Source of the DNA: Escherichia coli
Lineage (GTDB): Bacteria; Pseudomonadota; Gammaproteobacteria; Enterobacterales; Enterobacteriaceae
DNA length: 64,000 nucleotides
Reading direction: 5' to 3' (one strand)
Assembly: GCF_003991155.1 (NCBI RefSeq)
Contig: NZ_CP031293.1
The notes under the pieces are model-generated. The model was given only the letters and a program-made list of their open reading frames with translations, made no database searches and was not told where the DNA came from. Position 1 is the first letter of the stretch; every line of letters starts with the position of its first letter. Shown one piece after another: positions 5,789 to 28,654 of this stretch. The translations under genes were made by a program, and so were the position numbers.

Positions 5789-6790
5789 TGGTTGCCTCCG
5801 GAGCAGTTTGCGGTAATGCCGTTCCCGGGAATGGATTGCCAGTGCGGGGACTGTGGAGCTTAATTCCGGTGTTGGTGGCCTTTCCGTTGATTTTGAGCCA
5901 ACAGCCCTCCTGTGACTGACAGGCTGCCTCGTCATTCCATTCGTATCTCCAGTAACAGGGGGTTGTATTGTATTTTAATGTGCCGGTTCAGGCGTGCGTT
6001 TCCCGGCGCGTCTGCACCGGCTTAACCAAATTCAACAGGGATAAAATAGTGTAAATAACCGAAGTATTACTTGAAGAATCGGGGGAAGCATCCGGGGTTT
6101 TATTCAACAGGCATGGGAGGCTCCGGCTCTGACAGACATTGTACTGTGGAATGTTGTTACAGGTTGGGGCGGCAACCGTGCCAGGAGACCATGAGCCGTT
6201 CACGGCATTAAAGGCCACACTTCAGTCGTTTACATTCCCTGTGGTGGCAGGCATCTTCCGTTAAGGCGTCAGAGCGTTACCAACGTTATGTTGTCATGGC
6301 TCACCTTTCATAGTCGATGCTTATCTGGTGACTGAAACTAGCCGCAGATAAAGAGTGTGAAGTTGATACCATGGAGTGGAGTGACGTGCAGGCAGGAGAT
6401 TCGCTCTATGCAGGGTTGTGAGATGAATTCAAACCGGCTGTCAGCGCCAGTAATATTTGAAGATTCGTCCGGTTGTTATCCAGTGTGCATTAAAAACCCA
6501 GACATTATGGACAATACAACGGCTTCCATAACAGGGAGGAGCCTGTTTATTATCCGGGCGTAATGACTAACCTTTGTGGGCTTTTTCCCGTCGTGCTTTT
6601 AACGTTGAAGGCATTTTCTGCCTGCCGATTCAGGACAGCGACAAAAGCCATATCAGACTATTGGTCAATGATGACCAGCGTCTGGAGTAGATGATAAGCC
6701 AAATTGATAAACTGGAATATGTGATGAAAGTGCAACGTAATCAGTCCAATCCGACGATGTTTAACAAGAGTACGGTGTTTTTTCAGTAAG

Positions 6791-7573
6791 TCATTCGTCT
6801 TCTGAATCAGGTGTAATGATCTTTACAGAAGCATTCCGGCAGTGCGTAACATAATCTGCCGGTAACGGACGCTCGCTAATCAGAACATCAAATGCAGAGA
6901 GCGGTGCGAGGCTGGCAGAGGCTACTTCATCGAACAAGGCGTGGCGGGCGAGCAAAATTTTCCTTAGTCCACGGGCCATCGCTTTACGCTTAGTGGCAAG
7001 ATCTTCGGGATTAAACCAGCTGACGCCAAAGTGATCATGTACACCGCTGGCGGAAATAAATATTTTTCGCGGATTGAGAGAGTCTAATGGCGAAGAGTTA
7101 CTGGCATCGTAAAAAGCATCACTTCTGGCACGATACGTACCACCACAAAGTATTGCTGTCACATTAGGTTTTTCATTCAACGCAACAAAGACACGATGTG
7201 AGTAACAGATGCCAGTGAAGGTGATTGCATCCGGGATCATGCTTATAACGAGCGGTATCTCCTGGCCATTATCAAAGAAGATCAGATCATTTTCATTAAC
7301 CATTCCGGCGGCCAGAATTGCAATAGGTAAGTCATCACGATGATTTCTCGGAACGTCCTGGATTACTGGCATGGATGGTGCGGGTTTATGCACCATTACA
7401 ATATAGCCACCCAGTAGGGTCAGTGGCAGAGGTTCATCTTCCTGATGGAGATCGCGACGAATAGTCATTACAGAAACTTCCAGCATTCGTGCCGCGTCTT
7501 TCAAATGGATTCTGTCGGTTTTCTTAAGTATTTCAATCAAACGTCGGATACGCTCTTTTTGCTTCGTTTCCAT
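6791..7573 (-). CDS. deoQ: DeoR-family transcriptional repressor of the deoxyribose operon
   Basis: N-terminal helix-turn-helix (ERIRRLIEILKK...LKDAARMLEVSVMTIRRDL) plus DeoR-type sugar-binding domain, divergent from a deoK-deoP-deoX operon. ATG at 7573 has a GGAGAG ribosome-binding site; the ORF-track start at 7576 is a TTG. Confidence 0.8.
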   Translation of the reverse strand: METKQKERIRRLIEILKKTDRIHLKDAARMLEVSVMTIRRDLHQEDEPLPLTLLGGYIVMVHKPAPSMPVIQDVPRNHRDDLPIAILAAGMVNENDLIFFDNGQEIPLVISMIPDAITFTGICYSHRVFVALNEKPNVTAILCGGTYRARSDAFYDASNSSPLDSLNPRKIFISASGVHDHFGVSWFNPEDLATKRKAMARGLRKILLARHALFDEVASASLAPLSAFDVLISERPLPADYVTHCRNASVKIITPDSEDE

Positions 7574-7588
7574 CAACTCTCTCCGTAA

Positions 7589-7608
7589 AATGTTATAAAA
7601 ATAACATT
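7589..7608. promoter_or_regulatory. Inverted repeat AATGTTAT-AAAA-ATAACATT in the deoQ/deoK divergent control region; candidate operator
   Basis: 8-bp arms with a 4-bp spacer read directly from the sequence; TGTTAT-like motifs recur closer to deoK (about 7810-7850). Assigning it to DeoQ is inference. Confidence 0.3.
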
Positions 7609-7875
7609 ATGGCATTAGTAAACATTGTTTTAGTTACCATACTATACGACCGACCCTTTGAAATGAAAAGGGTATAGACTGCTGAATTTTCGGTATTAAT
7701 CCTGTTAGGTTGCTTATGATTAGATAGTGTTAGCCTGAGTGATAAGACTGGAAGTCTATTAAATAAACATCGGGTTGATGTGCTAATCGCGATCTCAGTC
7801 ACAAATGATGCAAAAGTAACATGCTAATGTTATTTAAATACCATTGTTATGCGAAAGTTTATAAGAGGTAGTGAA

Positions 7876-8796
7876 ATGGACATTGCAGTTATTGGTTCCA
7901 ATATGGTGGATCTCATTACTTACACTAATCAGATGCCTAAAGAAGGAGAAACTCTGGAAGCACCTGCCTTCAAAATCGGATGTGGTGGGAAAGGTGCTAA
8001 TCAAGCGGTGGCGGCGGCTAAATTGAATTCAAAAGTCCTGATGCTGACTAAAGTAGGTGATGATATTTTTGCGGATAATACTATTCGTAATCTCGAATCA
8101 TGGGGAATTAATACCACTTATGTTGAGAAAGTCCCCTGTACCAGCAGTGGTGTTGCACCGATCTTTGTTAATGCCAACTCGAGCAATAGTATATTAATAA
8201 TTAAGGGAGCGAATAAATTTCTTTCCCCGGAAGATATCGATCGAGCTGCAGAAGATCTGAAAAAATGCAAATTGATCGTTTTACAACTGGAAGTTCAACT
8301 GGAAACAGTTTACCACGCGATTGAGTTTGGTAAGAAAAATGGTATTGAAGTGTTATTAAATCCGGCTCCGGCATTGCGTGAGTTAGATATGTCTTATGCC
8401 TGCAAATGTGATTTCTTTATCCCGAATGAAACAGAACTGGAAATATTAACCGGTATGTCGGTTGATACTTATGATCATATTCGTTTGGCCGCACGTTCGT
8501 TAGTTGATAAAGGGCTGAACAATATTATTGTTACCATGAGCGAAAAAGGCGCATTATGGATGACCCGCGATCAGGAAGTCCATGTTCCTGCATTCAAAGT
8601 AAATGCTGTTGATACTAGTGGCGCTGGTGACGCATTTATTGGTTGCTTTTCCCATTATTATGTTCAAAGCGGTGATGTTGAAGCCGCTTTGAAAAAAGCC
8701 GCTCTCTTTGCCGCTTTCAGCGTCACAGGGAAAGGTACGCAATCATCTTATCCGAGTATTGAACAATTTAATGAATTTTTAACCTTAAACGAATAA
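7876..8796 (+). CDS. deoK: Deoxyribokinase (ribokinase/PfkB family)
   Basis: PfkB-family motifs (GGKGANQAVAAA; DTSGAGDAF). ATG at 7876 after an AGAGGTAG ribosome-binding site gives the 306-aa length I recall for DeoK; gene order deoQ / deoK-deoP-deoX. Confidence 0.85.
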   Translation: MDIAVIGSNMVDLITYTNQMPKEGETLEAPAFKIGCGGKGANQAVAAAKLNSKVLMLTKVGDDIFADNTIRNLESWGINTTYVEKVPCTSSGVAPIFVNANSSNSILIIKGANKFLSPEDIDRAAEDLKKCKLIVLQLEVQLETVYHAIEFGKKNGIEVLLNPAPALRELDMSYACKCDFFIPNETELEILTGMSVDTYDHIRLAARSLVDKGLNNIIVTMSEKGALWMTRDQEVHVPAFKVNAVDTSGAGDAFIGCFSHYYVQSGDVEAALKKAALFAAFSVTGKGTQSSYPSIEQFNEFLTLNE

Positions 8797-8823
8797 TCAT
8801 CCTGCACAGTTAAAGGTAGCACT

Positions 8824-10140
8824 ATGAACGATAAAAACATCATTCAGATGCCTGATGGGTATCTGAATAAGACTCCCTTGTTCCAGTTTATTTTGTTATC
8901 GTGTTTATTCCCGCTATGGGGATGCGCAGCTGCATTAAATGACATATTAATCACTCAATTCAAAAGTGTATTTTCGCTAAGTAACTTTGCTTCAGCATTG
9001 GTGCAGAGCGCATTTTATGGAGGTTATTTTTTAATTGCAATACCAGCATCCCTTGTGATTAAAAAGACCAGTTATAAGGTGGCAATTTTAATTGGCCTGA
9101 CGCTGTATATTGGTGGTTGTACACTTTTTTTCCCTGCCTCGCATATGGCAACCTACACTATGTTCCTTGCAGCTATTTTTGCGATTGCGATTGGCCTGAG
9201 TTTCCTTGAAACTGCAGCGAACACATACAGTTCAATGATCGGTCCAAAAGCCTATGCCACATTGCGGCTCAATATCAGCCAGACCTTTTATCCGATTGGT
9301 GCTGCGTCTGGTATTTTATTGGGCAAATATCTGGTTTTCTCCGAGGGGGAAAGCCTTGAAAAGCAGATGTCAGGAATGAACGCCGAGCAAATTCACAACT
9401 TTAAGGTGCTGATGTTAGAGAACACCCTTGAACCGTATAAGTATATGATTATGATTCTGGTTGTGGTCATGGTGTTGTTCCTTTTAACCCGCTTCCCAAC
9501 CTGTAAAGTGGCACAGACAAGTCACCATAAACGCCCGTCAGCAATGGATACGCTGCGCTATCTAGCTAGAAATCCGCGCTTTCGTCGCGGTATTGTGGCG
9601 CAGTTCCTTTATGTGGGTATGCAGGTCGCAGTATGGTCATTTACCATCCGTCTGGCGCTGGAGTTGGGCGATATCAACGAACGTGATGCTTCAAACTTCA
9701 TGGTCTATAGCTTTGCCTGCTTCTTTATTGGCAAGTTTATAGCCAATATCCTTATGACGCGTTTTAATCCGGAAAAAGTATTGATTCTCTATTCCGTTAT
9801 AGGGGCGCTGTTCCTGGCATATGTTGCACTGGCTCCAAGTTTCAGCGCGGTCTATGTCGCCGTCCTGGTAAGTGTTTTGTTTGGCCCTTGCTGGGCGACG
9901 ATCTATGCAGGAACACTGGATACAGTTGATAACGAACATACAGAAATGGCAGGAGCAGTCATTGTTATGGCTATTGTCGGTGCCGCGGTGGTTCCGGCAA
10001 TTCAGGGATATATTGCAGATATGTTCCACTCACTACAGCTTTCATTCCTGGTTTCTATGCTCTGCTTTGTCTATGTCGGAGTCTACTTCTGGCGTGAAAG
10101 CAAAGTACGTACCGCACTGGCTGAAGTCACAGCGTCCTGA
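8824..10140 (+). CDS. deoP: Deoxyribose permease (FucP-like MFS transporter)
   Basis: 438-aa polytopic membrane protein with fucose-permease-like features, immediately downstream of deoK. Confidence 0.85.
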   Translation: MNDKNIIQMPDGYLNKTPLFQFILLSCLFPLWGCAAALNDILITQFKSVFSLSNFASALVQSAFYGGYFLIAIPASLVIKKTSYKVAILIGLTLYIGGCTLFFPASHMATYTMFLAAIFAIAIGLSFLETAANTYSSMIGPKAYATLRLNISQTFYPIGAASGILLGKYLVFSEGESLEKQMSGMNAEQIHNFKVLMLENTLEPYKYMIMILVVVMVLFLLTRFPTCKVAQTSHHKRPSAMDTLRYLARNPRFRRGIVAQFLYVGMQVAVWSFTIRLALELGDINERDASNFMVYSFACFFIGKFIANILMTRFNPEKVLILYSVIGALFLAYVALAPSFSAVYVAVLVSVLFGPCWATIYAGTLDTVDNEHTEMAGAVIVMAIVGAAVVPAIQGYIADMFHSLQLSFLVSMLCFVYVGVYFWRESKVRTALAEVTAS

Positions 10141-10151
10141 GGAGAACCGTT

Positions 10152-11165
10152 ATGAGTACGCGTATTAATTTGTGGCGGGCGCTTTTTGGCGAGAAACCTC
10201 GTATCTTGCTGGAAAATAGTGATTTTACTGTCACGTCTTTTCGATATGACAGCGGTGTCGAGGGGCTTAAAATTGCAAACAGTCGTGGACATTTGATTAT
10301 TCTTCCCTGGATGGGGCAGATGATTTGGGATGCGCAATTTGATGGACACGGCCTCACCATGTGCAATATGTTTCGCCAGCCTAAACCGGCGACAGAGGTG
10401 ATAGAGACCTATGGCTGTTTTGCTTTTCATTCAGGTTTGCTGGCTAATGGCTGCCCATCTGCGGAAGATACTCATCTGCTACACGGTGAAATGGCCTGTG
10501 CCGCGATGGATGAAGCATGGCTGGAATTAGACGGAGATATGTTACGCCTTAACGGGCGTTACGAGTATGTAATGGGTTTCGGTCATCATTATCTGGCTCA
10601 GCCAACAGTGGTCCTTCACAAATCCTCTACACTGTTCGATATTAAGATGGCCGTAACCAATCTGGCTTCTGTAGATATGCCACTACAATATATGTGCCAC
10701 ATGAATTATGCATATATACCAAATGCTACATTCAGCCAGAATATCCCGGACGAAATATTAAGATTGCGTGAATCAGTGCCTTCGCATGTTAATCCCACCG
10801 CTCAGTGGCTGGCGTTTAATCAACGGATTATGCAGGGAGAAGCCTCTCTGTCGACGCTGAGTCAACCGGAATTTTATGATCCAGAAATTGTCTTCTTTGC
10901 AGACAAACTGGACGCTTATACAGATCAGCCAGAGTTTCGCATGATCTCTCCCGATGGCACCACGTTTGTTACTCGTTTCTACAGTGCTGAACTAAATTAT
11001 GTGACACGCTGGATCCTTTATAACGGAGAGCAACAGGTAGCCGCCTTTGCATTACCTGCAACCTGTCGGCCTGAGGGGTATCTTGCCGCGCAACGTAATG
11101 GCACGCTGATTCAGGTTGCACCGCAGCAAACGCGCACTTTTACAGTCACCACAGGAATTGAATAA
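10152..11165 (+). CDS. deoX: Aldose-1-epimerase-like protein of the deoxyribose operon
   Basis: 337 aa, GAGGAGAA ribosome-binding site, last gene of the deoK operon. Function inferred from operon context and my recollection of the described deoK operon. Confidence 0.7.
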   Translation: MSTRINLWRALFGEKPRILLENSDFTVTSFRYDSGVEGLKIANSRGHLIILPWMGQMIWDAQFDGHGLTMCNMFRQPKPATEVIETYGCFAFHSGLLANGCPSAEDTHLLHGEMACAAMDEAWLELDGDMLRLNGRYEYVMGFGHHYLAQPTVVLHKSSTLFDIKMAVTNLASVDMPLQYMCHMNYAYIPNATFSQNIPDEILRLRESVPSHVNPTAQWLAFNQRIMQGEASLSTLSQPEFYDPEIVFFADKLDAYTDQPEFRMISPDGTTFVTRFYSAELNYVTRWILYNGEQQVAAFALPATCRPEGYLAAQRNGTLIQVAPQQTRTFTVTTGIE

Positions 11166-11204
11166 CCACTCAAGGCCTGAACAGCGGCGCGCTTATCGTT
11201 AAGG

Positions 11205-11383
11205 TAAGCGCGTTTTTTACCCGCCAGGACAAGACTATGATAGCGTTGCCCTTATAGACGATCACATTATCGTCCACTCCAAATTTGCGCAACTACTGTA
11301 GAGTGGTGTACTCCACAGCTTCTTTGAGGAGCTTAACCTCCATTGTTTTCTTACCGAGCAAGCACTGCAACTCTTTTATTTAT
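11205..11383. repeat. About 180-bp segment, copy A of a direct repeat (second copy at 37163..37348, roughly 90% identity by eye); IS-associated
   Basis: Shared strings include GACAAGACTATGATAGCGTTGCCCTTATAGACGATCACATTATCGTCCACTCC and AACTACTGTAGAGTGGTGTACTCC. Copy B encodes, on the minus strand, the 3' end of an IS3/IS66-type OrfA-like gene. Confidence 0.6.
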
Positions 11384-11585
11384 TTGTAGTGGTCAACAAA
11401 AACTGGTCACAATTTCAGTTTTTTTCCAGTATCTATTTTCCGATTCGTTCGGCGGTAATCCACCGTTATATTCATGAGGCCGGAGTGCACTATAAAAGTG
11501 TATGCGTAAACCGACTGCTGTATGTAGCCATTAAGCCAGTATTGGTAACATAGGTACCCACCTTTTCAACTAGTGGACACCTGTT

Positions 11586-11870
11586 ATGGAACAAAAAACA
11601 TTATCAGCTGAACCCCGCAGGTTATTTTCAAATGAGTTTAAACTTCAAATGGTTAAACTGGCTTTACAACCAAGGGGTTCTGTTGCCCGTATTGCCCGGG
11701 AGCATGATATCAATGATAATCTTCTGTTCAAATGGCTCAGGCTCTCGCTGATCAAAGGGCGTATATCACGGCGTCTTCCGGTAACGAACTCTTCTGGCAT
11801 TGGCGTTGAATTATTACCTGTGGAGATGACGCTGGATGAGCGGCCTTACCCCGTTTTTTACGCGAGGTAA
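11586..11870 (+). mobile_element. IS66-family orf1 (TnpA-like accessory protein) fragment; downstream tnpB and tnpC absent
   Basis: EFKLQMVKLALQPRGSVARIAREHDINDNLLFKW parallels the intact IS66 orf1 later in the window (EFKIALVEQSLQPGACVAQIARENGINDNLLFNW). No tnpB/tnpC follow, so this is a remnant. Confidence 0.55.
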
Positions 11871-12085
11871 TTATGAAGATCAATGACTAGCCGTCGAACC
11901 GCGTGCATGAACTGCTGCACTGAAACTTCTCAGCTGTAAAATAATCCTTACGCTACGTACTTCTCGGAGCGCTTACGATTAATCGGATGCAGTCCTGACT
12001 GGAAGAAAGAAAAATGGAGAAAATAAGAGGAATTAATATCCTCCACGTTCCTGAAATCCTGGAGGATATTAATGTCATCAAAATA

Positions 12086-13342
12086 TTAGCGAACGATAAT
12101 CCCTAACAAAATACCCAGTGCGCCAAAGTCAGCATCACTGAAGGTGGTGTTAGCAAAACCAATATCACCCAGCACCGGCAATAAGAATACTGGCAGGAAG
12201 GTAATAAGCAAGCCCTGAGCGAAGGCACCCAAAATCGCACCACGACGTCCACCCGTTGCATTACCGAATACCCCTGCAGCTGCACCTACGAAGAAGTGCG
12301 GCACCACACCAGGAATAATCACGATCATGTTCAGCAGATACAACGTGAACATACCGATTAAACCTGCAGCAAAGCTACTCAGGAAACCAACCAGTACAGC
12401 GTTAGGTGCGTAAGGGAAGACGACCGGGCAATCGAGAGCAGGTCTGGCATTCGGAACCAGCTTGTCTGAAATACCTTTGAATGCCGGGACAATCTCCGCA
12501 ATCACCATGCGCACACCCTGCAGAATGATGTACACGCCAGCTGCGAAGGTAATGGATTGCATGATAGAGAACATGAACCAGTTTTTACCACCGCTAAGCT
12601 CTTTCACCGCATCTGCACCCGCAAACAGGCACGTCACCAGGAAAATTATGCTCATGGTAAAAGAGATAGCAACCGGCGTGTCGCGCAAGAACAGCAGACT
12701 TTTCGGCACATTCATGTCTTCAGTCGAGTGCTCTTTATTACCAAACTTGCTGCCGATGAAACCGGCCAATACATAAGATAATGTTGAGAAGTGGCCGATG
12801 GCAACGTCATCAGAACCGGTCACTTTCTTCATGTACGGATGCGCAATAGCCGGGAAAAAGACCATTGCCACGCCAACAACCAAAGAGCCAACGGCTATAA
12901 GCGTAACGCCGGTCATGCCTGCTGTTGCCAGAATTACCGCTACCATCATCGACATAAACAACGTGTGATGACCGGTCAGGAAGATAAATTTCCACGGTGT
13001 GAAACGGGCAATCATAATGTTGATAACCATCGCAAAGAACATAATCATCGCCATTTCTTTCCCGAAGCTTTTCTGCGCTACGGAAACAATGGCTTCATTG
13101 TTCGGCACGACACCCTGAATACCAAAGGCATGCTGGAAAATGTTTGCGAAGTCACCCAGTGACGACACAACTAAACCCGCCCCTGCGCCTAAAATCACAA
13201 ACCCCATAATGGTCTTGACGGTACCTTTAATGCATTCGGTTACCGGTTTTTTCTGTGCAATCAGGCCAATCAGGGCGATTAAACCGACCAGCACCGCGGG
13301 TTCGGAAAGTACATCGCTCATCAAAAAACGAAAGAAATCCAT
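12086..13342 (-). CDS. PTS ascorbate-family (SgaT/UlaA-type) transporter subunit IIC
   Basis: 418-aa polytopic membrane protein with SgaT/UlaA-type sequence character; co-oriented with IIB and IIA genes. Confidence 0.85.
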   Translation of the reverse strand: MDFFRFLMSDVLSEPAVLVGLIALIGLIAQKKPVTECIKGTVKTIMGFVILGAGAGLVVSSLGDFANIFQHAFGIQGVVPNNEAIVSVAQKSFGKEMAMIMFFAMVINIMIARFTPWKFIFLTGHHTLFMSMMVAVILATAGMTGVTLIAVGSLVVGVAMVFFPAIAHPYMKKVTGSDDVAIGHFSTLSYVLAGFIGSKFGNKEHSTEDMNVPKSLLFLRDTPVAISFTMSIIFLVTCLFAGADAVKELSGGKNWFMFSIMQSITFAAGVYIILQGVRMVIAEIVPAFKGISDKLVPNARPALDCPVVFPYAPNAVLVGFLSSFAAGLIGMFTLYLLNMIVIIPGVVPHFFVGAAAGVFGNATGGRRGAILGAFAQGLLITFLPVFLLPVLGDIGFANTTFSDADFGALGILLGIIVR

Positions 13343-13354
13343 ATCGCCCCCAGC

Positions 13355-13642
13355 TTACAGTGCGCCTAATTCGGTTAATGCCACGGACAAACGTTCTCTC
13401 ATGGCTTTCTTATCAATCATATTTTCCAGGGCGACGATTTTGCCTGCGACAGACTGCGCGACTAACTGCTCGGCAATATCTTTGGTGCCGACATAGATAT
13501 CACTCGGCGTCCCTTTCGCGGAGCCCAGGTCGACATGATCAACATCAGCGCTGATGGACAAATCCTTCAAAATGCTTTTAATGCTCATTTCCATCATCAG
13601 GCTGGTGCCTAAGCCGTTACCGCAAACCACTGTAATTTTCAT
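13355..13642 (-). CDS. PTS ascorbate-family subunit IIB
   Basis: 95 aa with N-terminal MKITVVCGNGLGTS (catalytic Cys motif of L-ascorbate-family IIB); GAGGAA ribosome-binding site. Confidence 0.8.
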   Translation of the reverse strand: MKITVVCGNGLGTSLMMEMSIKSILKDLSISADVDHVDLGSAKGTPSDIYVGTKDIAEQLVAQSVAGKIVALENMIDKKAMRERLSVALTELGAL

Positions 13643-13657
13643 AAATGTTCCTCAGAA

Positions 13658-14101
13658 TTAATAGCGCGCAATAACAGACAAAATGTCCTGCGTCGTTTTG
13701 GCCGTCAAAATAGCCTGTATGTCTTTTTCGTTATCGAATAACTTGGCGAGTTGAGAAATCGCTTCAATGTGGCTGGTACTGTCGGTTGCAGCCAGCACAA
13801 TCAGTAATTTCACTGGATCGTTTTCATCGGCATCAAAATTCACACCTGAAGGGATCAGGGTCAGTGCTAATGACAGCTTGTTAGCCCCCTCTTCCGGGCG
13901 CGCATGAGGCATCGCAATACCAGGGCCAACCACATAGTACGGACCGATAGTGTCGTGCGAGTGATAGATCGCATCAACATAACGCGGTTCGATAGAACCG
14001 TTTTCAATCAACGGTCGGCATGAAATCGCCACGGCTTCCCGCCAGTCTTTGACCTGTTCCACGACCTGAACGACCTCTGTATTTAATAGATTTTTTAACA
14101 T
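13658..14101 (-). CDS. PTS subunit IIA (mannitol/fructose-type IIA fold, as in UlaC/SgaA)
   Basis: 147 aa with the conserved histidine region (GIAMPHAR); GGGAG ribosome-binding site; first gene of the IIA-IIB-IIC operon. Confidence 0.8.
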   Translation of the reverse strand: MLKNLLNTEVVQVVEQVKDWREAVAISCRPLIENGSIEPRYVDAIYHSHDTIGPYYVVGPGIAMPHARPEEGANKLSLALTLIPSGVNFDADENDPVKLLIVLAATDSTSHIEAISQLAKLFDNEKDIQAILTAKTTQDILSVIARY

Positions 14102-14371
14102 ACGACTGATAACTCCCGATGATAATTAACAGGAGAGTAGATATTTTACGCATTAATTAATGTGATGATTGTCGCATTTGATAGCGCTATCTGATAACGC
14201 TACCAATCTTTGTGATAGCGCTATCATTTCTCTGCCGCCATGCTTTGGCTATATTCGGTTCCTGCATATACAATGCAACAGGATATTTGCTACCGTGGGC
14301 AAAAACTGGAAAGAGTAATGGTGAAATAAAAGTAATGAAAACAGCTGGTTGTAATTATCCATGGAGTCGAA

Positions 14372-15403
14372 ATGGAAAAAACACGTAAGCGCCGTGGTAC
14401 CGGACGGGTGACGCTGCAGGAGGTCGCTAACTTTGCAGGTGTCGGAACCATGACCGTTTCCCGCGCGCTGAGAACACCGGAACAGGTTTCTGACAAGCTG
14501 AGGGAAAAGATAGAACAGGCCGTAGAAGAGTTGGGTTATATTCCCAACAGAACTGCTGGCGCCCTTGCATCTGGTCACAGTCATACAGTCGCCGTACTGG
14601 TTCCTTCCCTGACAGATAAAGCCAGCTCCCGCTTTATGCAGTCATTACAGCAGGTGCTTAATAAAAATGAATTCCAGCTACTGCTTGGGTGTCATGAGTA
14701 TAATCAGCTCAAAGAAGCTGAAATTCTGATGACGCTTCTTCAAGGCAACCCGGCGGCGTTAGTTATTTTTGGTTCTCAGTTGGCTGATAAAACTCACCAG
14801 ATACTCGAGAAAACAAATATACCTACCATTAACGTTATCGGTTCCCCTTTCAGTCCGGCTCAAATTACCATCGAAACAGCATTTTTTGAAGCATCACATA
14901 AACTGACCGAACATCTGCTGGAGCAGGGTTATAAGAATATCGGATTTATCGGTGCGCATATGGACAACCGCCTGCAACGTCAGCAACTGAACGGCTGGCA
15001 TAAAGCAATGCTGAGCCATTACCAGAACACTGATCTTGTTATCACCATGCCGGATGCCGCAAGTCTGCAATTGGGGCGTTACGCATTAAACGAGATATTA
15101 CTGCGACAACCAGAGCTGGATGCTGTGATTTGCAGCCACGAAGAGATTGCGCTGGGTATAATGTTTGAGTGCCAGCGGCGTTTGTTAAAAATCCCTGGAA
15201 ATATCGCTGTAGCTTGTCTTGACGGTTCAGACAATTGCGATCAAACACACCCAACTTTGACATCCATCCGTATTGACTACAAAAAAATGGGGATAGAGAC
15301 AGGTAAGTTACTGATTGGACTATTGAATAATAATCATGATGAATCAGAAGAGTCGCGTATCGTGCAATTCAACTACCAGATAGAATTACGTCAGAGTACA
15401 TGA
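14372..15403 (+). CDS. LacI-family transcriptional regulator, divergent from the PTS operon
   Basis: N-terminal helix-turn-helix (VTLQEVANFAGVGTMTVSRALR) plus periplasmic-binding-protein-like sugar-binding domain. The true start may be the GTG at about 14410. Confidence 0.8.
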   Translation: MEKTRKRRGTGRVTLQEVANFAGVGTMTVSRALRTPEQVSDKLREKIEQAVEELGYIPNRTAGALASGHSHTVAVLVPSLTDKASSRFMQSLQQVLNKNEFQLLLGCHEYNQLKEAEILMTLLQGNPAALVIFGSQLADKTHQILEKTNIPTINVIGSPFSPAQITIETAFFEASHKLTEHLLEQGYKNIGFIGAHMDNRLQRQQLNGWHKAMLSHYQNTDLVITMPDAASLQLGRYALNEILLRQPELDAVICSHEEIALGIMFECQRRLLKIPGNIAVACLDGSDNCDQTHPTLTSIRIDYKKMGIETGKLLIGLLNNNHDESEESRIVQFNYQIELRQST

Positions 15404-16145
15404 GCCTAAAAGAGCGCTATTACAAAGTTAGCTATTGTGGTAGGGATAGCCGTTTCCGGCTATTCCCCGCGCAGTTCCGGATGTATGCTGCTAACGCATC
15501 CATTCCTACTTCAGGTATTTGGCGTAGAAGCGGATGCTAAAAACTTGTCGCAAAACCGCAATATCAGCCTGCAGTATCGCTCTCCAGATTATCCATTCCT
15601 ATATTGATGACAACGACAGGTAAGACTGTGACTCACCAAACTTGGATGTTTTTCTGAGCTTAAAGCTCGTTGCGTGAATAAGGCGAGAGTCAGCGAATCT
15701 CATTGAGGCCCGCAGCACCGGCTGCAATAAGGATATAGAGCAGCAATCTACCGTCAACGTCAAAAACACGGAAGCCTTGCAAACGGGATGCGTTCATATA
15801 AACAACATGGAGCAGCAACAGTACGATGCCTGTTGTTGCTCAGTCAGGACCTTTTCTGCCATGCGCGAGCCAGCGTCACGATTGATAAATAATGTTCGCA
15901 ACTGATTACTTTACTGCAACAGACGTGGCTGGTAATAAGCGCTGGCGGACAATGCAGGGTGAAAGGCTGTTTTCGGGTTGTCCGGCCTGATACATCAGAG
16001 CAATACGTTGCGTTAAAAACGGCTGTTCAGTCTCTGATGCCACGGGGTATTGCAACAATCATCCGGTGATGGACGGGAGAAATATCGACTCTTCCGTTAG
16101 TTTTTACAGACTGATAAAGTTTTGCCAGCTGAATCTTTATACGGA

Positions 16146-16781
16146 ATGCTCTTCAGTATGCATATACGAATTGACTATCTGGCGGATAAAAACTGCTTTA
16201 CAGAACTGAATGAATCTCCACGCCTTCGCCGGCAGTGGCAGGATGTTCTGGAGGAGTGCCGGCAGACAGAGGCCGGGCCAGAAGAACGGCTGCGTATTGC
16301 TCTGCTGAATGTGGATTACGTCACCAGTTTTGAACTGCCTTTTCGCTTGTTGCTTACTCGTACACCACAACTGATTGCCGCGCTGCGTGAAGAATGGGAC
16401 ATCAGCCAGAAAAATGTGGTGTTCAACGATAAACGCTTTGGCTGCGTGTACAACCTGAAGGCCAGCCTTTCGGGTGGGCCGGATACATTCCGGTATCATC
16501 TGTCTCACCGTATTCGGCGGGTGGTTGCGAATGAAAACACATCATCGCCATACCAACTGATTGCCCGGGAAGTGAAAGCGCCCCGTCAACGGCTGAAGTA
16601 TGCGCTGGAGACAGGATTGCAGGTGAGCGCACTGGACGGCCTGTTCTGGTTCGGCAGCCAGCGCATTGCGGCAGATATCCTGAGGCTGAGAAAGTACGGG
16701 ATGCGGATTGCGACGGCTTCTGTGGACGTGTATGACAACATAACCGGAACAACTCGTCATATCCCTGTATATTACTCCTGA
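16146..16781 (+). CDS. Hypothetical protein upstream of cdiB, possible C-terminal DNA-binding region
   Basis: The ORF-track start at 16122 is a TTG; the first ATG is at 16146, with weak ribosome-binding-site support. I recognise no family; a possible helix-turn-helix-like stretch is at the C-terminus (GSQRIAADILRLRKYGMRIAT). Confidence 0.4.
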   Translation: MLFSMHIRIDYLADKNCFTELNESPRLRRQWQDVLEECRQTEAGPEERLRIALLNVDYVTSFELPFRLLLTRTPQLIAALREEWDISQKNVVFNDKRFGCVYNLKASLSGGPDTFRYHLSHRIRRVVANENTSSPYQLIAREVKAPRQRLKYALETGLQVSALDGLFWFGSQRIAADILRLRKYGMRIATASVDVYDNITGTTRHIPVYYS

Positions 16782-17002: not shown

Positions 17003-18775
17003 ATGCAGCACCGGCAGAAAAACATTCTGACGAAAACGTCCCTTTTATCCCGTGCGTTGTCTGTCCCCTGTTGTGATATGTTCCGGCGCGGCTCTCCGTG
17101 GATATGCTATCTCTCCCTCTCCGTTTTTTCTGGTTGTTTCATCCCCGCATTTTCGTCTCCGGCAGCCATGCTGTCTCCGGGTGACCGCAGTGCAATTCAG
17201 CAGCAACAGCAGCAGTTGCTGGATGAAAACCAGCGTCAGCGTGATGCGCTGGAGCGCAGTGCGCCGCTGACCATCACGCCGTCTCCGGAAACGTCTGCCG
17301 GTACTGAAGGTCCCTGCTTTACGGTGTCAAGCATTGTTGTCAGTGGGGCCACCCGACTGACGTCTGCAGAAACCGACAGACTGGTGGCACCGTGGGTGAA
17401 TCAGTGTCTGAATATCACGGGGCTGACCGCGGTCACGGATGCCGTGACGGACGGCTATATACGCCGGGGATATATCACCAGCCGGGCCTTTCTGACAGAG
17501 CAGGACCTTTCAGGGGGCGTACTGCACATAACGGTCATGGAAGGCAGGCTGCAGCAAATCCGGGCGGAAGGCGCTGACCTTCCTGCCCGCACCCTGAAGA
17601 TGGTTTTCCCGGGAATGGAGGGGAAGGTTCTGAACCTGCGGGATATTGAGCAGGGGATGGAGCAGATTAATCGTCTGCGTACGGAGCCGGTACAGATTGA
17701 AATATCGCCCGGTGACCGTGAGGGATGGTCGGTGGTGACACTGACGGCATTGCCGGAATGGCCTGTCACAGGGAGCGTGGGCATCGACAACAGCGGGCAG
17801 AAGAATACCGGTACGGGGCAGTTAAATGGTGTCCTTTCCTTTAATAATCCTCTGGGGCTGGCTGACAACTGGTTTGTCAGCGGGGGACGGAGCAGTGACT
17901 TTTCGGTGTCACATGATGCGAGGAATTTTGCCGCCGGTGTCAGTCTGCCGTATGGCTATACCCTGGTGGATTACACGTATTCATGGAGTGACTACCTCAG
18001 CACCATTGATAACCGGGGCTGGCGGTGGCGTTCCACGGGAGACCTGCAGACTCACCGGCTGGGACTGTCGCATGTCCTGTTCCGTAACGGGGACATGAAG
18101 ACAGCACTGACCGGAGGTCTGCAGCACCGCATTATTCACAATTATCTGGATGATGTTCTGCTTCAGGGCAGCAGCCGTAAACTCACTTCATTTTCTGTCG
18201 GGCTGAATCACACACACAAGTTTCTGGGTGGTGTCGGAACACTGAATCCGGTATTCACACGGGGGATGCCCTGGTTCGGCGCAGAAAGCGACCACGGGAA
18301 AAGGGGAGACCTGCCCGTAAATCAGTTCCGGAAATGGTCGGTGAGTGCCAGTTTTCAGCGCCCCGTCACGGACAGGGTGTGGTGGCTGACCAGCGCTTAT
18401 GCCCAGTGGTCACCGGACCGTCTTCATGGTGTGGAACAACTGAGCCTCGGGGGTGAGAGTTCAGTGCGTGGCTTTAAGGAGCAGTATATCTCCGGTAATA
18501 ACGGCGGTTATCTGCGGAATGAGCTGTCCTGGTCTCTGTTCTCCCTGCCATATGTGGGGACAGTCCGTGCAGTGACTGCACTGGACGGCGGCTGGCTGCA
18601 CTCTGACAGAGATGACCCGTACTCGTCCGGCACGCTGTGGGGTGCTGCTGCCGGGCTCAGCACCACCAGTGGTCATGTTTCCGGTTCGTTCACTGCCGGA
18701 CTGCCTCTGGTTTACCCGGACTGGCTTGCCCCTGACCATCTCACGGTTTACTGGCGCGTTGCCGTCGCGTTTTAA
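17003..18775 (+). CDS. cdiB: Two-partner secretion outer-membrane transporter (TpsB; ShlB/FhaC/HecB family)
   Basis: 590 aa with POTRA-containing TpsB character, GGGGAG ribosome-binding site, immediately upstream of a 3288-aa TpsA-type exoprotein with a VENN motif. Confidence 0.9.
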   Translation: MQHRQKNILTKTSLLSRALSVPCCDMFRRGSPWICYLSLSVFSGCFIPAFSSPAAMLSPGDRSAIQQQQQQLLDENQRQRDALERSAPLTITPSPETSAGTEGPCFTVSSIVVSGATRLTSAETDRLVAPWVNQCLNITGLTAVTDAVTDGYIRRGYITSRAFLTEQDLSGGVLHITVMEGRLQQIRAEGADLPARTLKMVFPGMEGKVLNLRDIEQGMEQINRLRTEPVQIEISPGDREGWSVVTLTALPEWPVTGSVGIDNSGQKNTGTGQLNGVLSFNNPLGLADNWFVSGGRSSDFSVSHDARNFAAGVSLPYGYTLVDYTYSWSDYLSTIDNRGWRWRSTGDLQTHRLGLSHVLFRNGDMKTALTGGLQHRIIHNYLDDVLLQGSSRKLTSFSVGLNHTHKFLGGVGTLNPVFTRGMPWFGAESDHGKRGDLPVNQFRKWSVSASFQRPVTDRVWWLTSAYAQWSPDRLHGVEQLSLGGESSVRGFKEQYISGNNGGYLRNELSWSLFSLPYVGTVRAVTALDGGWLHSDRDDPYSSGTLWGAAAGLSTTSGHVSGSFTAGLPLVYPDWLAPDHLTVYWRVAVAF

Positions 18776-18787
18776 GGGATTATTACC

Positions 18788-21700
18788 ATGCATCAGCCTC
18801 CCGTTCGCTTCACTTACCGCCTGCTGAGTTACCTTATCAGTACGATTATCGCCGGGCAGCCGTTGTTACCGGCTGTGGGGGCCGTCATCACCCCACAAAA
18901 CGGGGCTGGAATGGATAAAGCGGCAAATGGTGTGCCGGTCGTGAACATTGCCACGCCGAACGGGGCCGGGATTTCGCATAACCGGTTTACGGATTACAAC
19001 GTCGGGAAGGAAGGGCTGATTCTCAATAATGCCACCGGTAAGCTTAATCCGACGCAGCTTGGTGGACTGATACAGAATAACCCGAACCTGAAAGCGGGCG
19101 GGGAAGCGAAGGGTATCATCAACGAAGTGACCGGCGGTAAGCGCTCACTGCTGCAGGGCTATACGGAAGTGGCCGGCAAAGCGGCGAATGTGATGGTTGC
19201 CAACCCGTATGGTATCACCTGTGACGGCTGTGGTTTTATCAACACGCCGCACGCGACGCTCACCACAGGCAAACCTGTGATGAATGCCGACGGCAGCCTG
19301 CAGGCGCTGGAGGTGACTGAAGGCAGTATCACCATCAATGGCGCGGGCCTGGACGGCACCCGGAGCGATGCCGTATCCATTATTGCCCGTGCAACGGAAG
19401 TGAATGCCGCGCTTCATGCGAAGGATTTAACTGTCACTGCAGGCGCTAACCGGATAACTGCAGATGGTCGCGTCAGTGCCCTGAAGGGCGAAGGTGATGT
19501 GCCGAAAGTTGCCGTTGATACCGGCGCGCTCGGTGGAATGTACGCCAGGCGTATTCATCTGACCTCCACTGAAAGTGGTGTCGGGGTTAATCTGGGTAAC
19601 CTTTATGCCCGCGAGGGCGATATCACCCTGGATGCCAGCGGCAGACTGACTGTCAACAACAGTCTCGCCACGGGGGCCGTCACTGCAAAAGGTCAGGGCG
19701 TCACCTTAACCGGCGACCATAAAGCGGGAGGTAACCTGAGCGTCAGCAGCCGGAGCGATATCGTTCTCAGCAATGGAACGCTTAACAGCGACAAGGACCT
19801 CAGCCTGACCGCCGGCGGCAGAATCACTCAACAGAATGAAAAACTGACTGCCGGCCGGGATGTAACGCTTGCCGCGAAAAACATCACACAGGATACCGCC
19901 AGCCAGATTAACGCGGCCCGCGATATCGTGACTGTCGCCAGTGACACGCTGACAACACAGGGACAGATAACCGCCGGGCAGAATCTCACGGCCAGCGCCA
20001 CCACGCTGACACAGGACGGAATATTGCTGGCGAAAGGTCATGCGGGACTCGATGCCGGCACGCTGAATAACAGTGGTGCTGTTCAGGGGGCTTCCCTGAC
20101 GCTCGGCAGTACAACGCTCAGCAACAGTGGCTCCCTGCTCAGTGGCGGTCCCCTGACCGTGAATACCCGCGACTTTACCCAGAGCGGCCGCACTGGCGCG
20201 AAGGGCAAAGTGGATATCACGGCCAGTGGGAAACTGACCAGTACAGGTTCGCTGGTGAGCGATGATGTACTGGTGCTGAAGGCGCAGGATGTGACACAGA
20301 ACGGTGTGCTGTCCGGCGGCAAAGGGCTGACGGTCAGTGCGCAGGCGCTGAGCTCCGGTAAAAAATCGGTCACCCACAGCGATGCTGCGATGACGCTGAA
20401 TGTGACAACAGTGGCGCTGGACGGGGAAAACAGTGCCGGTGACACCCTCCGGGTTCAGGCAGACAAACTGAGTACCGCAGCGGGCGCACAGCTTCAGAGC
20501 GGTAAAAATCTCAGCATCAACGCCAGAGATGCACGTCTTGCAGGTACGCAGGCAGCACAACAGACCATGGCGGTGAACGCCAGTGAAAAGCTCACCCACA
20601 GCGGGAAAAGCAGCGCCCCGTCGCTCAGCCTCAGTGCGCCGGAACTGACCAGCAGCGGTGTGCTTGTTGGTTCCGCCCTGAATACACAGTCACAGACCCT
20701 GACCAACAGTGGTCTGTTGCAGGGGGAGGCCTCACTCACCGTTAACACACAGAGGCTTGATAATCAGCAGAACGGCACGCTGTACAGTGCTGCAGACCTG
20801 ACGCTGGATATACCGGACATCCGCAACAGCGGGCTTATCACCGGTGATAATGGTTTAACGTTAAACACTGCCTCCCTCAGCAATCCGGGAAAAATCATCG
20901 CTGACACGCTGAACGTCAGGGCGACCACGCTGGATGGTGATGGTCTGTTGCAGGGCGCCGGTGCACTGGCGCTTGCAGGCGACACCCTCTCACAGGGCCG
21001 TAACGGACGCTGGCTGACGGCGGGCGACCTCTCCCTCCGGGGTAAAACACTGCATACCGCAGGGACCACGCAGGGACAGAATCTCACCGTGCAGGCGGAC
21101 AGATGGGCGAACAGTGGTTCCGTGCTGGCAACCGGTAACCTTACTGCTTCGGCAACCGGTCAGTTGACCAGTACCGGCGATATCATGAGCCAGGGTGACA
21201 CCACGCTGAAAGCAGCCACCATGGACAACCGGGGCAGTCTGCTTTCGGCCGGCACGCTCTCCCTTGATGGAAACTCACTGGATAACAGCGGCACTGTCCA
21301 GGGTAACCATGTCACGATTCGCCAGAACAGTGTCACCAACAGTGGCACGCTCACCGGGATAGCCGCGCTGACGCTTGCCGCCCGTATGGCATCCCCTCAA
21401 CCTGCGCTGATGAATAACGGAGGTTCATTGCTGACCAGCGGCGATCTGACAATCACCGCAGGCAGTATTACCAGTTCCGGACACTGGCAGGGCAAACGGG
21501 TGCTGATCACCGCAGACAGTCTGGCAAACAGCGGGGCGATCCAGGCGGCTGACAGCCTGACTGCACGTCTGACGGGTGAGCTCGTCAGCACAGCGGGCAG
21601 CAAAGTCACCTCGAACGGTGAAATGGCGCTCAGTGCACTGAATTTAAGCAACAGCGGACAATGGATTGCAAAAAATCTGACCCTGAAGGCGAACTCACTG

Positions 21701-27700: not shown

Positions 27701-28654
27701 ACGGGAGAGCTGGCAGCCAGAGCGATTGCCGGAATGCTGTATCCGGGAGTGAAGCAGTCAGACCTCAGTGAAGAGCAGAAGCAGACGATAAGTACGCTGG
27801 CAACTGTGTCAGCAGGGCTGGCCGGCGGTCTAACCGGAAACAGCACCGCATCAGCAGCAGTGGGAGCACAGAGCGGGAAGAATGCTGTTGAGAATAACTA
27901 CCTGAGCGTGTCTGAAAAGACAGAACTTGAGATAGCAAAACAGACGCTTAAAAACAGTAAAGATCCGGCAGAGCGTGAAAAGGCACAGCAGAAATATGAT
28001 GCATTGCTTGAAAAAGATATTGCCAGTGATAAGGAGGTTATTGCTGCCTGTAGTAATGGTAATGCGAGTAGTTCAGCGTGTGCCAGCGCAAGACTGAAAG
28101 TTATTGCGTCGAAAGAAGGGTACGAAGATGGCCCTTATAACTCGAAATACAGCCAGCAATACGCTGATGCGTATGGTCAGATAGTCAATCTCCTCGATAT
28201 CACCAGTGTTGATGCACAGAATCAGCAGCAGGTGAAAAACGCCATGATTAACTATTTCATGGTCACCAAAGGGGTGGATCGTCAGACCGCAGAAAGCTAC
28301 ACCGAAACAACGCAGGGCTTGGAGATCATTGCGGCTTCGGTAACGCCTCTTATAGGGCAAGCTGCATCAAATAAATTAAGCTACCTTGGTATTGGGAAAA
28401 AGATATCCTTTGATGGTGATTTTTATACTGTAGATGGAATGAAATTCAGCAAAAGTTATTATGAGAAATTATGGGAGCAAGGCAGACCTGCGCCATTCGT
28501 GCAAGCAAGAGAAGTGTTGAATAGCAATCCAAAAATTGAGCCGGATCCTAGAGGCGCACCTGGCTACTTAAGATATGAAGGTGCAGGTCTTGAAATGATC
28601 TATAACCCGAAAACGGGACAAGTTGGTCATATTCAACCAGTCAAGGTTAAATAA
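18788..28654 (+). CDS. cdiA: Contact-dependent growth inhibition exoprotein CdiA (3288 aa)
   Basis: N-terminal two-partner-secretion transport domain ([27 protein letters not shown]), long filamentous-haemagglutinin-type repeat tract, glycine-rich pre-toxin region and the VENN motif ([15 protein letters not shown]) about 255 aa from the C-terminus. Confidence 0.9.
27887..28654 (+). other. CdiA-CT toxin region (VENN to stop); enzymatic class unassigned
   Basis: VENN codons at 27887..27898, in frame with cdiA. The final domain (...[33 protein letters not shown]...GHIQPVKVK) matches no toxin I can name and does not end in GYGI. Confidence 0.7.

Follow-up and report, generated by a model that had tools for sequence, protein, structure and literature searches.

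Within a 64,000-nucleotide stretch of Escherichia coli DNA (the window), a LacI-regulated PTS operon of the L-ascorbate family encodes transporter components only, and a fragment of an IS66 orf1 lies about 200 bp past the IIC gene. The original prediction listed these elements, all of which were found to be present, and offered two explanations for them: the 3′ part of the operon, carrying genes for sugar-phosphate-processing enzymes, may have been lost, or the transporter feeds enzymes encoded elsewhere. The question raised by this locus is whether it is a truncated operon or a complete unit. With a probability of roughly 0.88, it is a complete vpe cassette (vpeR, a triple-operator region and vpeA-vpeB-vpeC) whose 3′ end has suffered no loss, and the IS66 remnant is a scar left by the joining of modules.

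Gene organization and identification of the locus

The vpeR gene (positions 14372–15403, + strand) encodes a LacI-family repressor (PF00356 plus PF13377/PF00532) and is divergent from three genes located on the − strand. These are vpeA (13658–14101), encoding a PTS enzyme IIA with a mannitol/fructose-type fold (PF00359, E 2e-36), vpeB (13355–13642), encoding an enzyme IIB (PF02302, E 2e-12), and vpeC (12086–13342), encoding a 418-aa enzyme IIC of the L-ascorbate (UlaA/SgaT) family, which matches EIIC-GAT over its full length (PF03611, E 4e-150). The combination of a UlaA/SgaT-fold IIC with separate IIB and IIA proteins is the enzyme II architecture of TC 4.A.7. Spacers of 15 nt (vpeA/vpeB) and 12 nt (vpeB/vpeC) separate the transporter genes, and the locus has no enzyme gene attached to them.

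A vpe operon (vpeR, vpeABC) was reportedly described by Martinez-Jehanne et al. in 2012 in the extraintestinal pathogenic E. coli (ExPEC) strain AL511. The locus analyzed here is the same one: the order vpeR ↔ vpeA-vpeB-vpeC and the VpeR and VpeA proteins are identical to those published, and VpeB and VpeC are near-identical. ExPEC chromosomes match the window at 100% identity. In a strain showing such a match, the VpeR and VpeA products bear the accession nos. WP_000416157.1 and WP_000916811.1, which are those given for VpeR and VpeA in supplement file 17 of PMC6455142; the VpeB and VpeC proteins are allelic variants (WP_000705927.1 and WP_000345349.1, vs. the published WP_000705928.1 and WP_000345347.1). 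Since the accessions match for VpeR and VpeA, and those of deoM, deoP, deoK and deoQ adjoin, the locus was identified as vpe.

According to the table in PMC6455142, the published ORF34–37 (vpe), ORF38 (transposase) and ORF39–42 (deoK) correspond to window positions 15403 back to 6791. The LAC island listed there has the same neighbours as the window (a transposase fragment, deoM/P/K/Q and the cdiA island), with no substantive difference. The locus is the already published vpe operon of an ExPEC/STEC island, adjoining the deoK deoxyribose cluster, and there is nothing unusual about it. Papers citing the original description (PMC5382810 and PMC6455142) present vpe as a PTS enzyme II operon acting on capsule, virulence and gut colonisation. 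It is a named fitness/virulence operon that has been studied experimentally, the IS fragment beside it is part of an ordinary island mosaic, and the locus opens no new question in this respect. The module is kept whole in 935 of 5426 complete E. coli genomes.

The IS66 remnant and the 3′ end of the cassette

The IS66-family element (11500–11976, + strand) is internally deleted. Besides its left and right ends (the latter ...CGCTTAC), it retains a 5′ portion of tnpA and a 3′ portion of tnpC (about 11858–11979), and a complete tnpA-tnpB-tnpC set is absent between the recognisable ends at 11500 and 11976. Alignment placed position 11500 at the terminal base of intact ISEc23, and in a second island context the homology begins exactly at this position. 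The tnpA and tnpC matches show 87–89% identity. The 94-aa ORF (11586–11870, + strand; PF01527) is a tnpA fragment, since its match to the IS66 accessory protein TnpA covers only the first ~60 residues and its score is below the cut-off (NF038385, 64 bits vs. 150). The distance from the vpeC stop codon is 215 bp to the end of this ORF and 109 bp to the end of the element. The element, flanked by ATAAAAGT and GATTAATC, has no 8-bp target duplication and is a dead remnant.

Next to the remnant are a fragment of an IS3-family (IS911-like) transposase gene (11383–11495; 81–85% identity to annotated IS3/IS911 transposase genes) and a uhpA-like fragment (11163–11298; 86–87% identity to the core uhpA-ilvN region of E. 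coli), the latter delimiting the imported deoK module on its right side. The next real genes (7876–11165, + strand) are convergent to vpe and comprise deoX/deoM (10152–11165; mutarotase-like), deoP (8824–10140; permease) and deoK (7876–8796; kinase); beyond them lies deoQ (6791–7573, − strand), which encodes a DeoR-type regulator. All four were named from the annotation of the identical strain and the supplement accessions of PMC6455142. This deoK deoxyribose cluster (6791–11165) is a neighbour of vpe, yet separate and separately regulated. In E. coli islands, the IS66 remnant most likely represents the scar joining the four-gene vpe module to other modules, either the deoK cluster or IS debris.

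The genes following IIC were compared in 80 species-level loci outside E. coli (VpeC 83–99% identical), found in Buttiauxella, Yersinia, Proteus, Providencia, Photorhabdus, Vibrio, Aeromonas and others. Genes for IIA-IIB-IIC are present in 79 of the 80 loci and a divergent LacI gene in 72. In the surveyed species the cassette occurs on its own, in numerous unrelated chromosomal settings that contain no IS, and at the DNA level homology with the window goes no further than positions 12079 and 15411, at most 8 bp from the stop codons of vpeC and vpeR. The unit can therefore be defined more cleanly, as a four-gene cassette bounded exactly by two stop codons. In Yersinia, Proteus, Photorhabdus and Vibrio this cassette is a vertical resident; in E. 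coli it is mobile. None of the sampled genomes represents the direct donor of the vpe copy in E. coli, the closest having a dS of 0.41. As this comparison, proposed in the original prediction, yielded loci consisting solely of the regulator and IIABC genes, or of IIABC alone, intact in 80 other species, which is the outcome that the prediction itself had named as a refutation, the suggested loss of the 3′ part is refuted.

The first ORF downstream of vpeC is convergent in 55 of 78 loci, and clustering of the nearest ORFs in the 80-locus survey placed the downstream neighbours in 37 unrelated clusters. Because the downstream neighbours differ to this extent, it is very unlikely that a conserved downstream gene was lost. 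A Pfam scan of ten same-strand downstream ORFs detected no sugar-phosphate enzymes; these ORFs encode an alanine racemase, GGDEF, SelD-like, thioesterase, VC2046, DUF2501, DUF4955 and IspA-like proteins (the last a weak match, below Pfam's cut-off) and two proteins without a Pfam match. Fragments of the 311 neighbour proteins were not detectable in the flanks of vpe in E. coli, and neither ulaG/ulaDEF-type enzymes nor UlaR are linked to vpe in the window or among the called genes of six outside loci. HAD-hydrolase genes adjacent to vpeR in Dryocola and V. parahaemolyticus were considered as linked phosphatases and rejected. Their gene order suggests the resident yieH-like gene and phnX, respectively.

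Directly past vpeC, starting 13 nt beyond its stop codon, lies a probable transcription terminator (12032–12073, − strand), in which a perfect inverted repeat of 14 bp encloses a loop of 14 nt ahead of a T-rich run. Its predicted fold (−23 kcal/mol) has a z-score of only −1.6 and the hairpin is AT-rich, so that this function is plausible rather than proven.

If the operon were 3′-truncated, insertion of the IS66 element or an IS-mediated deletion would have removed sugar-phosphate genes once located after IIC. The lack of a target-site duplication at a remnant this close to the vpeC stop is compatible with such an event, as is the content of sister L-Asc-family PTS clusters (IIC 49–53% identical): these have IIB-IIC (and IIA) modules like those of vpe and mostly PRD-type regulators, and transketolase, transaldolase, SIS or DeoC genes lie beside IIC in three of the four that were sampled, but never in the Vpe clade. 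The generalization that sugar-phosphate enzymes are the rule in operons of this family thus holds for the nearest sister clades and for ula, but not for the Vpe clade itself. Genes of this kind were found downstream of vpeC in none of the 78 orthologous loci with downstream sequence. Together with the abrupt end of homology at the stop codon in every lineage, the unrelated and mostly convergent neighbours, the lack of gene remnants in the E. coli flank and the hairpin with its T-rich tail, this makes truncation highly improbable. There is likewise very little chance that the deoK cluster, with its kinase, permease and mutarotase-like protein, supplies the catabolic enzymes and forms one functional unit with vpe, even though the two modules adjoin in most of the E. 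coli islands that carry them and both are linked to host colonisation in PMC6455142. They are convergent and separated by the uhpA fragment and by IS3 and IS66 debris; each has its own regulator (DeoR-type deoQ vs. LacI-type vpeR) and the deoK cluster its own permease. Moreover, one E. coli island context contains vpe with no adjoining deoK, a deoK-type kinase/permease/mutarotase cluster is absent from the called genes of six loci outside E. coli, and no neighbour family is common across lineages in the 80-locus survey.

VpeR and the operator region

An array of three 14-bp palindromes (14179–14226) with the consensus TGATAGCGCTATCA and a central CG is located in the regulated promoter region: O1 (14213–14226), O2 (14192–14205) and O3 (14179–14192), with centres 21 and 13 bp apart. 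All three matches to the consensus within the 64-kb window fall in this array, compared to 0.17 expected, and a scan of the window plus 1.16 Mb of flanking DNA identified one match outside vpe promoters, probably occurring by chance. Every orthologous locus with a LacI gene, from E. coli to Vibrio and Aeromonas, shows the same predicted sites, spacing and distance to the IIA start; loci without the LacI gene lack the operators as well, the array having been lost together with the regulator gene. Immediately promoter-proximal to O3, a candidate CRP site (TGCGA-N6-TCACA, 14161–14176) was read from the sequence, and its half-site positions are invariant in a six-genus alignment. Matches to Rfam families below threshold (AfaR, Moco) were set aside.

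VpeR contains a LacI helix-turn-helix motif and a periplasmic-binding-protein-like effector domain. Its best NCBIfam match is the Pseudomonas-type GntR (NF052440), at 279 bits vs. a cut-off of 400. VpeR and its orthologues score 255–295 bits with this model, the order of the named families being Pseudomonas GntR, IdnR and E. coli GntR, and VpeR is below the cut-off of every GntR/IdnR equivalog model. The operators of Pseudomonas GntR, also a LacI-family protein, have an AGCGCT core, and the palindrome (T/C)AGCGCT(A/G) is common to them and to those of vpe; the effectors are gluconate and 6-phosphogluconate (PMC5902321, PMC12195362). Unlike this regulator, of which it is not an equivalog, VpeR would control a PTS permease rather than gntP/gntK, through three tandem operators. 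That a LacI subfamily has an operator core in common does not establish which effector VpeR recognizes.

Relationship of VpeABC to UlaABC and the putative substrate

VpeABC resembles UlaABC (SgaTBA) of E. coli in its three-protein enzyme II architecture and in the fold family of IIC, with VpeC matching the UlaA structures 4RP8/5ZOV at E 2e-50. The two systems differ in gene order (IIA-IIB-IIC in vpe, IIC-IIB-IIA in ula), in regulator type (LacI vs. the DeoR-type UlaR) and in that vpe, unlike ula with its ulaDEF and ulaG genes, has no linked lactonase, decarboxylase or epimerases. VpeC (TCDB 4.A.7.1.2) is also shorter than UlaA (418 vs. 465 aa) and has no TM11 (PMC6048161).

The hinge glycines of UlaA and the equivalents of its Arg288, His135, His194 and Asp314 are retained in VpeC (G54, G276, R278, H125, H184 and D304) and all are invariant, i.e. 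the UlaA transport architecture is preserved. Ten ascorbate contacts of UlaA could be mapped in VpeC. H135, H194, D314 and F362 are kept and I358V is conservative, whereas five (T86N, Y87E, I136H, Q139F and Q195F) are replaced non-conservatively, and these replacements are fixed in 81 of 81 VpeC sequences. In this set no variation occurs at any of the 14 positions mapped to the pocket and hinge. The dN/dS values of vpeC (0.008–0.021) show that purifying selection is very strong over the entire gene. The predicted phosphorylatable residues are His66 of VpeA (in GIAMPH) and Cys7 of VpeB (in VVCGNGLGTS).

In the proposed working of the system, VpeR would bind the three TGATAGCGCTATCA operators until released by a sugar-derived effector, and transcription would run from vpeA to the hairpin just past vpeC. 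By analogy with the family, phosphate would pass from core EI/HPr to VpeA His66, then to VpeB Cys7 and finally to the substrate held by VpeC. The phosphorylated product would be handled by enzymes encoded elsewhere, the simplest reason being that it may already be a central metabolite or lie one step away from one. The alternative put forward in the original prediction, that the transporter feeds such enzymes, stays the best reading and agrees with the in vivo phenotypes published for vpe mutants.

A rival reading takes VpeABC to be a second L-ascorbate PTS, with the core ulaG/ulaDEF or yiaK-S enzymes processing its product. In E. coli the ula enzymes are encoded elsewhere, VpeC passes the cut-off of NF006919, “PTS ascorbate transporter subunit IIC” (629 vs. 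380 bits), and the RefSeq label of vpeC is sometimes ulaA. However, VpeC fails the UlaA equivalog model NF009549 (593 bits, cut-off 890), the regulator is of the LacI/GntR type, and the nearest non-Vpe IIC representatives are at most 53% identical. Since half of the mapped ascorbate contacts are replaced, the Vpe substrate is probably not ascorbate, and the chance of a second ascorbate system is slim. A mainly sensory or regulatory PTS branch, in which the phosphorylation state rather than carbon supply controls e.g. the capsule, would need no linked enzymes, and the cassette indeed has no dedicated ones in any lineage; according to the citing papers PMC5382810 and PMC6455142, vpe mutants are attenuated and have much less group 2 capsule material. 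Carbon supply could equally cause the capsule effect, and the intact transport architecture, the extreme purifying selection over the full length of VpeC, as for a working permease, and the pairing of a presumably substrate-responsive LacI repressor and a candidate CRP site, as is customary in catabolic operons, all argue for a transporter, so that a mainly signalling role appears unlikely.

For the complete cassette acting with enzymes encoded elsewhere, our preferred guess is an aldonic acid or a sugar lactone other than ascorbate. This is weakly supported by the resemblance of VpeR and its operator to Pseudomonas GntR and by the replacement of half of the UlaA contacts in VpeC. In a more specific and rather doubtful form, VpeABC might be a PTS permease for a gluconate/gluconolactone-type aldonic acid or lactone, yielding 6-phosphogluconate or 6-phosphogluconolactone, with VpeR as a GntR-like sensor. 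If so, a central-metabolite product would explain a cassette without enzymes in about 80 species, and pathogenic E. coli would gain high-affinity, PEP-driven uptake of a sugar acid from gut or urine. The sister clades were dropped as a clue to the substrate, being no more than 53% identical and differing in regulators and enzymes. The conserved triple operator and strongly constrained IIC revealed by the comparison narrow the substrate question, and practical handles are provided by the binding of VpeR to its operators, by structure 3D8U, which shows the effector domain of the Vibrio orthologue, and by the pocket residues in which VpeC departs from UlaA.

Gene content and identity of the vpe operon

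Analysis of the window confirmed the predicted LacI regulator, the IIA-IIB-IIC components and the IS66 orf1 fragment past IIC. The IIA (vpeA, 13658–14101; PF00359), IIB (vpeB, 13355–13642; PF02302) and IIC (vpeC, 12086–13342; PF03611, E 4e-150) genes are located on the minus strand, separated by spacers of 15 nt and then 12 nt, and are divergent from vpeR (14372–15403), assigned to the LacI family by its family match. No co-directional enzyme gene was found beside this PTS operon in the window.

Several human ExPEC chromosomes match the window with 100% identity over 25 kb. The annotated products of one such strain include a LacI regulator (WP_000416157.1), a IIA protein (WP_000916811.1) and the neighboring WP_000107474.1, WP_000998349.1, WP_000350265.1 and WP_001315616.1. 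Exactly these accessions appear in supplementary file 17 of PMC6455142 under the names VpeR, VpeA, DeoM, DeoP, DeoK and DeoQ; they belong to a pheV island in which vpe (ORFs 34–37) is followed by a transposase fragment (ORF 38) and deoK (ORFs 39–42). Both PMC5382810 and PMC6455142 attribute vpe to Martinez-Jehanne et al. 2012 (pmid 22615242) and describe a PTS EII operon whose mutants show reduced group 2 capsule and poorer colonisation. VpeC is also entry TC 4.A.7.1.2 (PMC6048161). The matching accessions, published descriptions and TC entry therefore identify a named, studied operon. The locus is thus not new, and the puzzle of an enzyme-less operon ending in an IS remnant is resolved as ordinary.

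The vpe cassette in other species

The original prediction held that the 3′ part of the operon may have been lost. All six loci looked up (Klebsiella sp., Brenneria, Dryocola, Citrobacter sp., Photorhabdus and V. parahaemolyticus) consist of a LacI gene divergent from IIA-IIB-IIC alone, in varied neighborhoods and without IS. A survey of one genome per species yielded 80 loci with VpeC 83–99% identical to that of the window (Buttiauxella 98–99%; Yersinia 95–98%; Providencia, Proteus and Edwardsiella about 90%; Photorhabdus, Xenorhabdus, Vibrio, Photobacterium and Aeromonas 83–90%). IIA-IIB-IIC was present in 79 of these loci and a divergent LacI gene in 72. DNA homology to the window in other species never extended beyond 12079 on one side and 15411 on the other, and the neighbors formed 37 (downstream) and 32 (upstream) unrelated clusters. 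The first downstream ORF was convergent in 55/78 loci; ten same-strand ORFs scanned by Pfam matched alanine racemase, GGDEF, SelD-like, thioesterase, VC2046, DUF2501 and DUF4955, with one weak, sub-cut-off IspA-like match and two ORFs without any Pfam match. No pieces of 311 neighbor proteins were detectable in the E. coli flanks of vpe. Since the surveyed cassette stands alone among varied neighbors and without remnants, the four genes constitute the full unit, and truncation is refuted.

The expectation that operons of this family usually carry sugar-phosphate enzymes often holds for the nearest other IIC clades (≤53% identical), where transketolase, transaldolase, SIS or DeoC genes often lie beside IIC, but not for the Vpe clade itself. 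VpeC orthologues are 83–100% identical over three orders of Gammaproteobacteria; the next protein representatives (P0121–P0124) reach at most 53%, which leaves a sharp gap.

Yersinia pestis NCTC5923 (locus L037) retains just vpeC and the end of vpeB, with vpeA and vpeR absent within 7 kb; in other Yersinia species the cassette is intact and lies between pta and a NUDIX gene.

The junction with the deoK cluster

The region between the deoX (11165) and vpeC (12086) stops is a patchwork of fragments: uhpA-like (11163–11298, bordering the imported deoK module), IS3/IS911-like (about 11383–11495) and IS66-family (11500–11976). In a plus-strand ORF of 94 aa (11586–11870), only the first ~60 residues match the IS66 accessory protein TnpA, with a score under the family cut-offs; the ORF is therefore a fragment, and 215 bp separate its end from the IIC stop, in agreement with the predicted distance of about 200 bp. 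Position 11500 aligns to the terminal base of intact ISEc23, and the 5′ part of tnpA is joined directly to the 3′ end of tnpC (about 11858–11979). No 8-bp duplication was found in the flanks of the remnant. The spacer between the remnant and the vpeC stop (109 bp) contains a perfect 14-bp inverted repeat with a T-rich tail (12032–12073), 13 nt past this stop.

Among 5426 complete E. coli genomes, 1349 contain some vpe DNA, 935 the whole module and 1337 the same remnant-vpeC junction as the window. Homology to the window in another E. coli island context starts exactly at 11500. It follows that this junction formed a single time and that the remnant moves with vpe within E. coli.

Some 400 E. 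coli genomes, JJ1887 and EC958 among them (loci L011 of GN04530 and L012 of PS_131_S11; comparison matches H79–H81), retain only the 3′ 878 bp of vpeC beside the same remnant and deoK; vpeA, vpeB and vpeR are lost and a different sugar-acid-type cluster (UxaA, PdxA, DapA-like, MFS) follows. The K. pneumoniae IncY plasmid pINF102.6 (locus L093) carries the E. coli-type remnant, vpe (with vpeC interrupted by ISEc22) and vpeR between two IS26 copies, and in Citrobacter plasmids (C. portucalensis, locus L094) only the remnant is left between IS26 copies.

An Rfam match to the AfaR sRNA (11399–11603, minus strand) was rejected as a gene: it scores 33 bits where the gathering score is 100, and its well-aligned half is antisense to the IS66 left end and tnpA start, so part of the AfaR model itself appears to stem from an IS66-type end. 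An ilvN pseudogene fragment and the uhpA-like fragment flank the deoK deoxyribose cluster (deoQ, deoK, deoP, deoX/deoM; 6563–11298 with both fragments), which fits the literature proposal of an imported uhpA-ilvN intergenic insert of another enterobacterium. On the other side, about 1.6 kb past vpeR, lies a contact-dependent inhibition locus (17003–28654; cdiB, 590 aa; cdiA, 3288 aa) with a G+C content of 0.57–0.60 versus 0.45–0.49, preceded by an ECs1377-family gene (16122–16781).

Regulation, transporter and possible function

The 270-bp vpeR-vpeA intergenic region contains three copies of TGATAGCGCTATCA (14213–14226, 14192–14205 and 14179–14192), its only matches in the 64 kb (0.17 expected). 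This predicted operator array recurs in every LacI-containing orthologous locus, with the spacing of the window (21 + 13 bp) or as two sites 34 bp apart, in most loci about 65–120 nt ahead of the IIA start, a distance that reaches about 230 nt in some Photorhabdus; scanning of 1.16 Mb of flanks revealed one occurrence outside vpe promoters. TGCGA-N6-TCACA (14161–14176) adjoins the operator at 14179–14192; its half-sites do not vary in an alignment of six genera, making it a candidate CRP site. Xenorhabdus species, Candidatus Fukatsuia and Serratia microhaemolytica (loci L080, L082, L085, L086, L088, L090 and L092) contain vpeABC without a LacI gene, and the operator sought in these loci was absent, which implies constitutive or differently controlled expression.

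VpeC was aligned with E. coli UlaA (4RP8; E 2e-50), using the ascorbate contacts listed in PMC6048161. Equivalents of the hinge glycines, Arg288, His135, His194, Asp314 and Phe362 are kept, whereas Thr86, Tyr87, Ile136, Gln139 and Gln195 are replaced by Asn, Glu, His, Phe and Phe; none of these positions varies among 81 VpeC sequences. The dN/dS of vpeC is 0.008–0.021, with dS to the closest relative already 0.41, and median identity is 90% for IIC, 82% for IIB and 67% for both IIA and LacI. Judged from these sequences, VpeC works as a permease under strong constraint, and its predicted pocket differs from the ascorbate pocket.

The best-supported reading is that Vpe would act as a self-contained, substrate-inducible PTS permease, whose product would be processed by enzymes encoded elsewhere. 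Both the pocket and the regulator argue against a second ascorbate system, and functional coupling to the adjacent deoK cluster is unsupported outside E. coli. The permease-like constraint makes a mainly regulatory role less likely, though possible. With regard to the substrate of such a permease, VpeR and its orthologues score best with Pseudomonas-type GntR, followed by IdnR and the GntR of E. coli (all below cut-off), and Pseudomonas GntR, with gluconate and 6-phosphogluconate as effectors, binds operators with the same AGCGCT core as in vpe (PMC5902321, PMC12195362). These similarities weakly suggest a sugar acid or lactone with a phosphorylated form that belongs to central metabolism, which would explain the universal absence of linked enzymes.

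A weak Moco-riboswitch-like match just past the vpeR stop (15414–15555, minus strand; 24.8 bits versus 36, E 0.025) is probably due to chance. For ligand docking, a structure of a VpeR orthologue already exists: the structural-genomics PDB entry 3D8U, which bears the label “PurR transcriptional regulator”, is the effector-binding domain of the V. parahaemolyticus protein (locus L010, 5915–6943), nearly identical over 274 residues.
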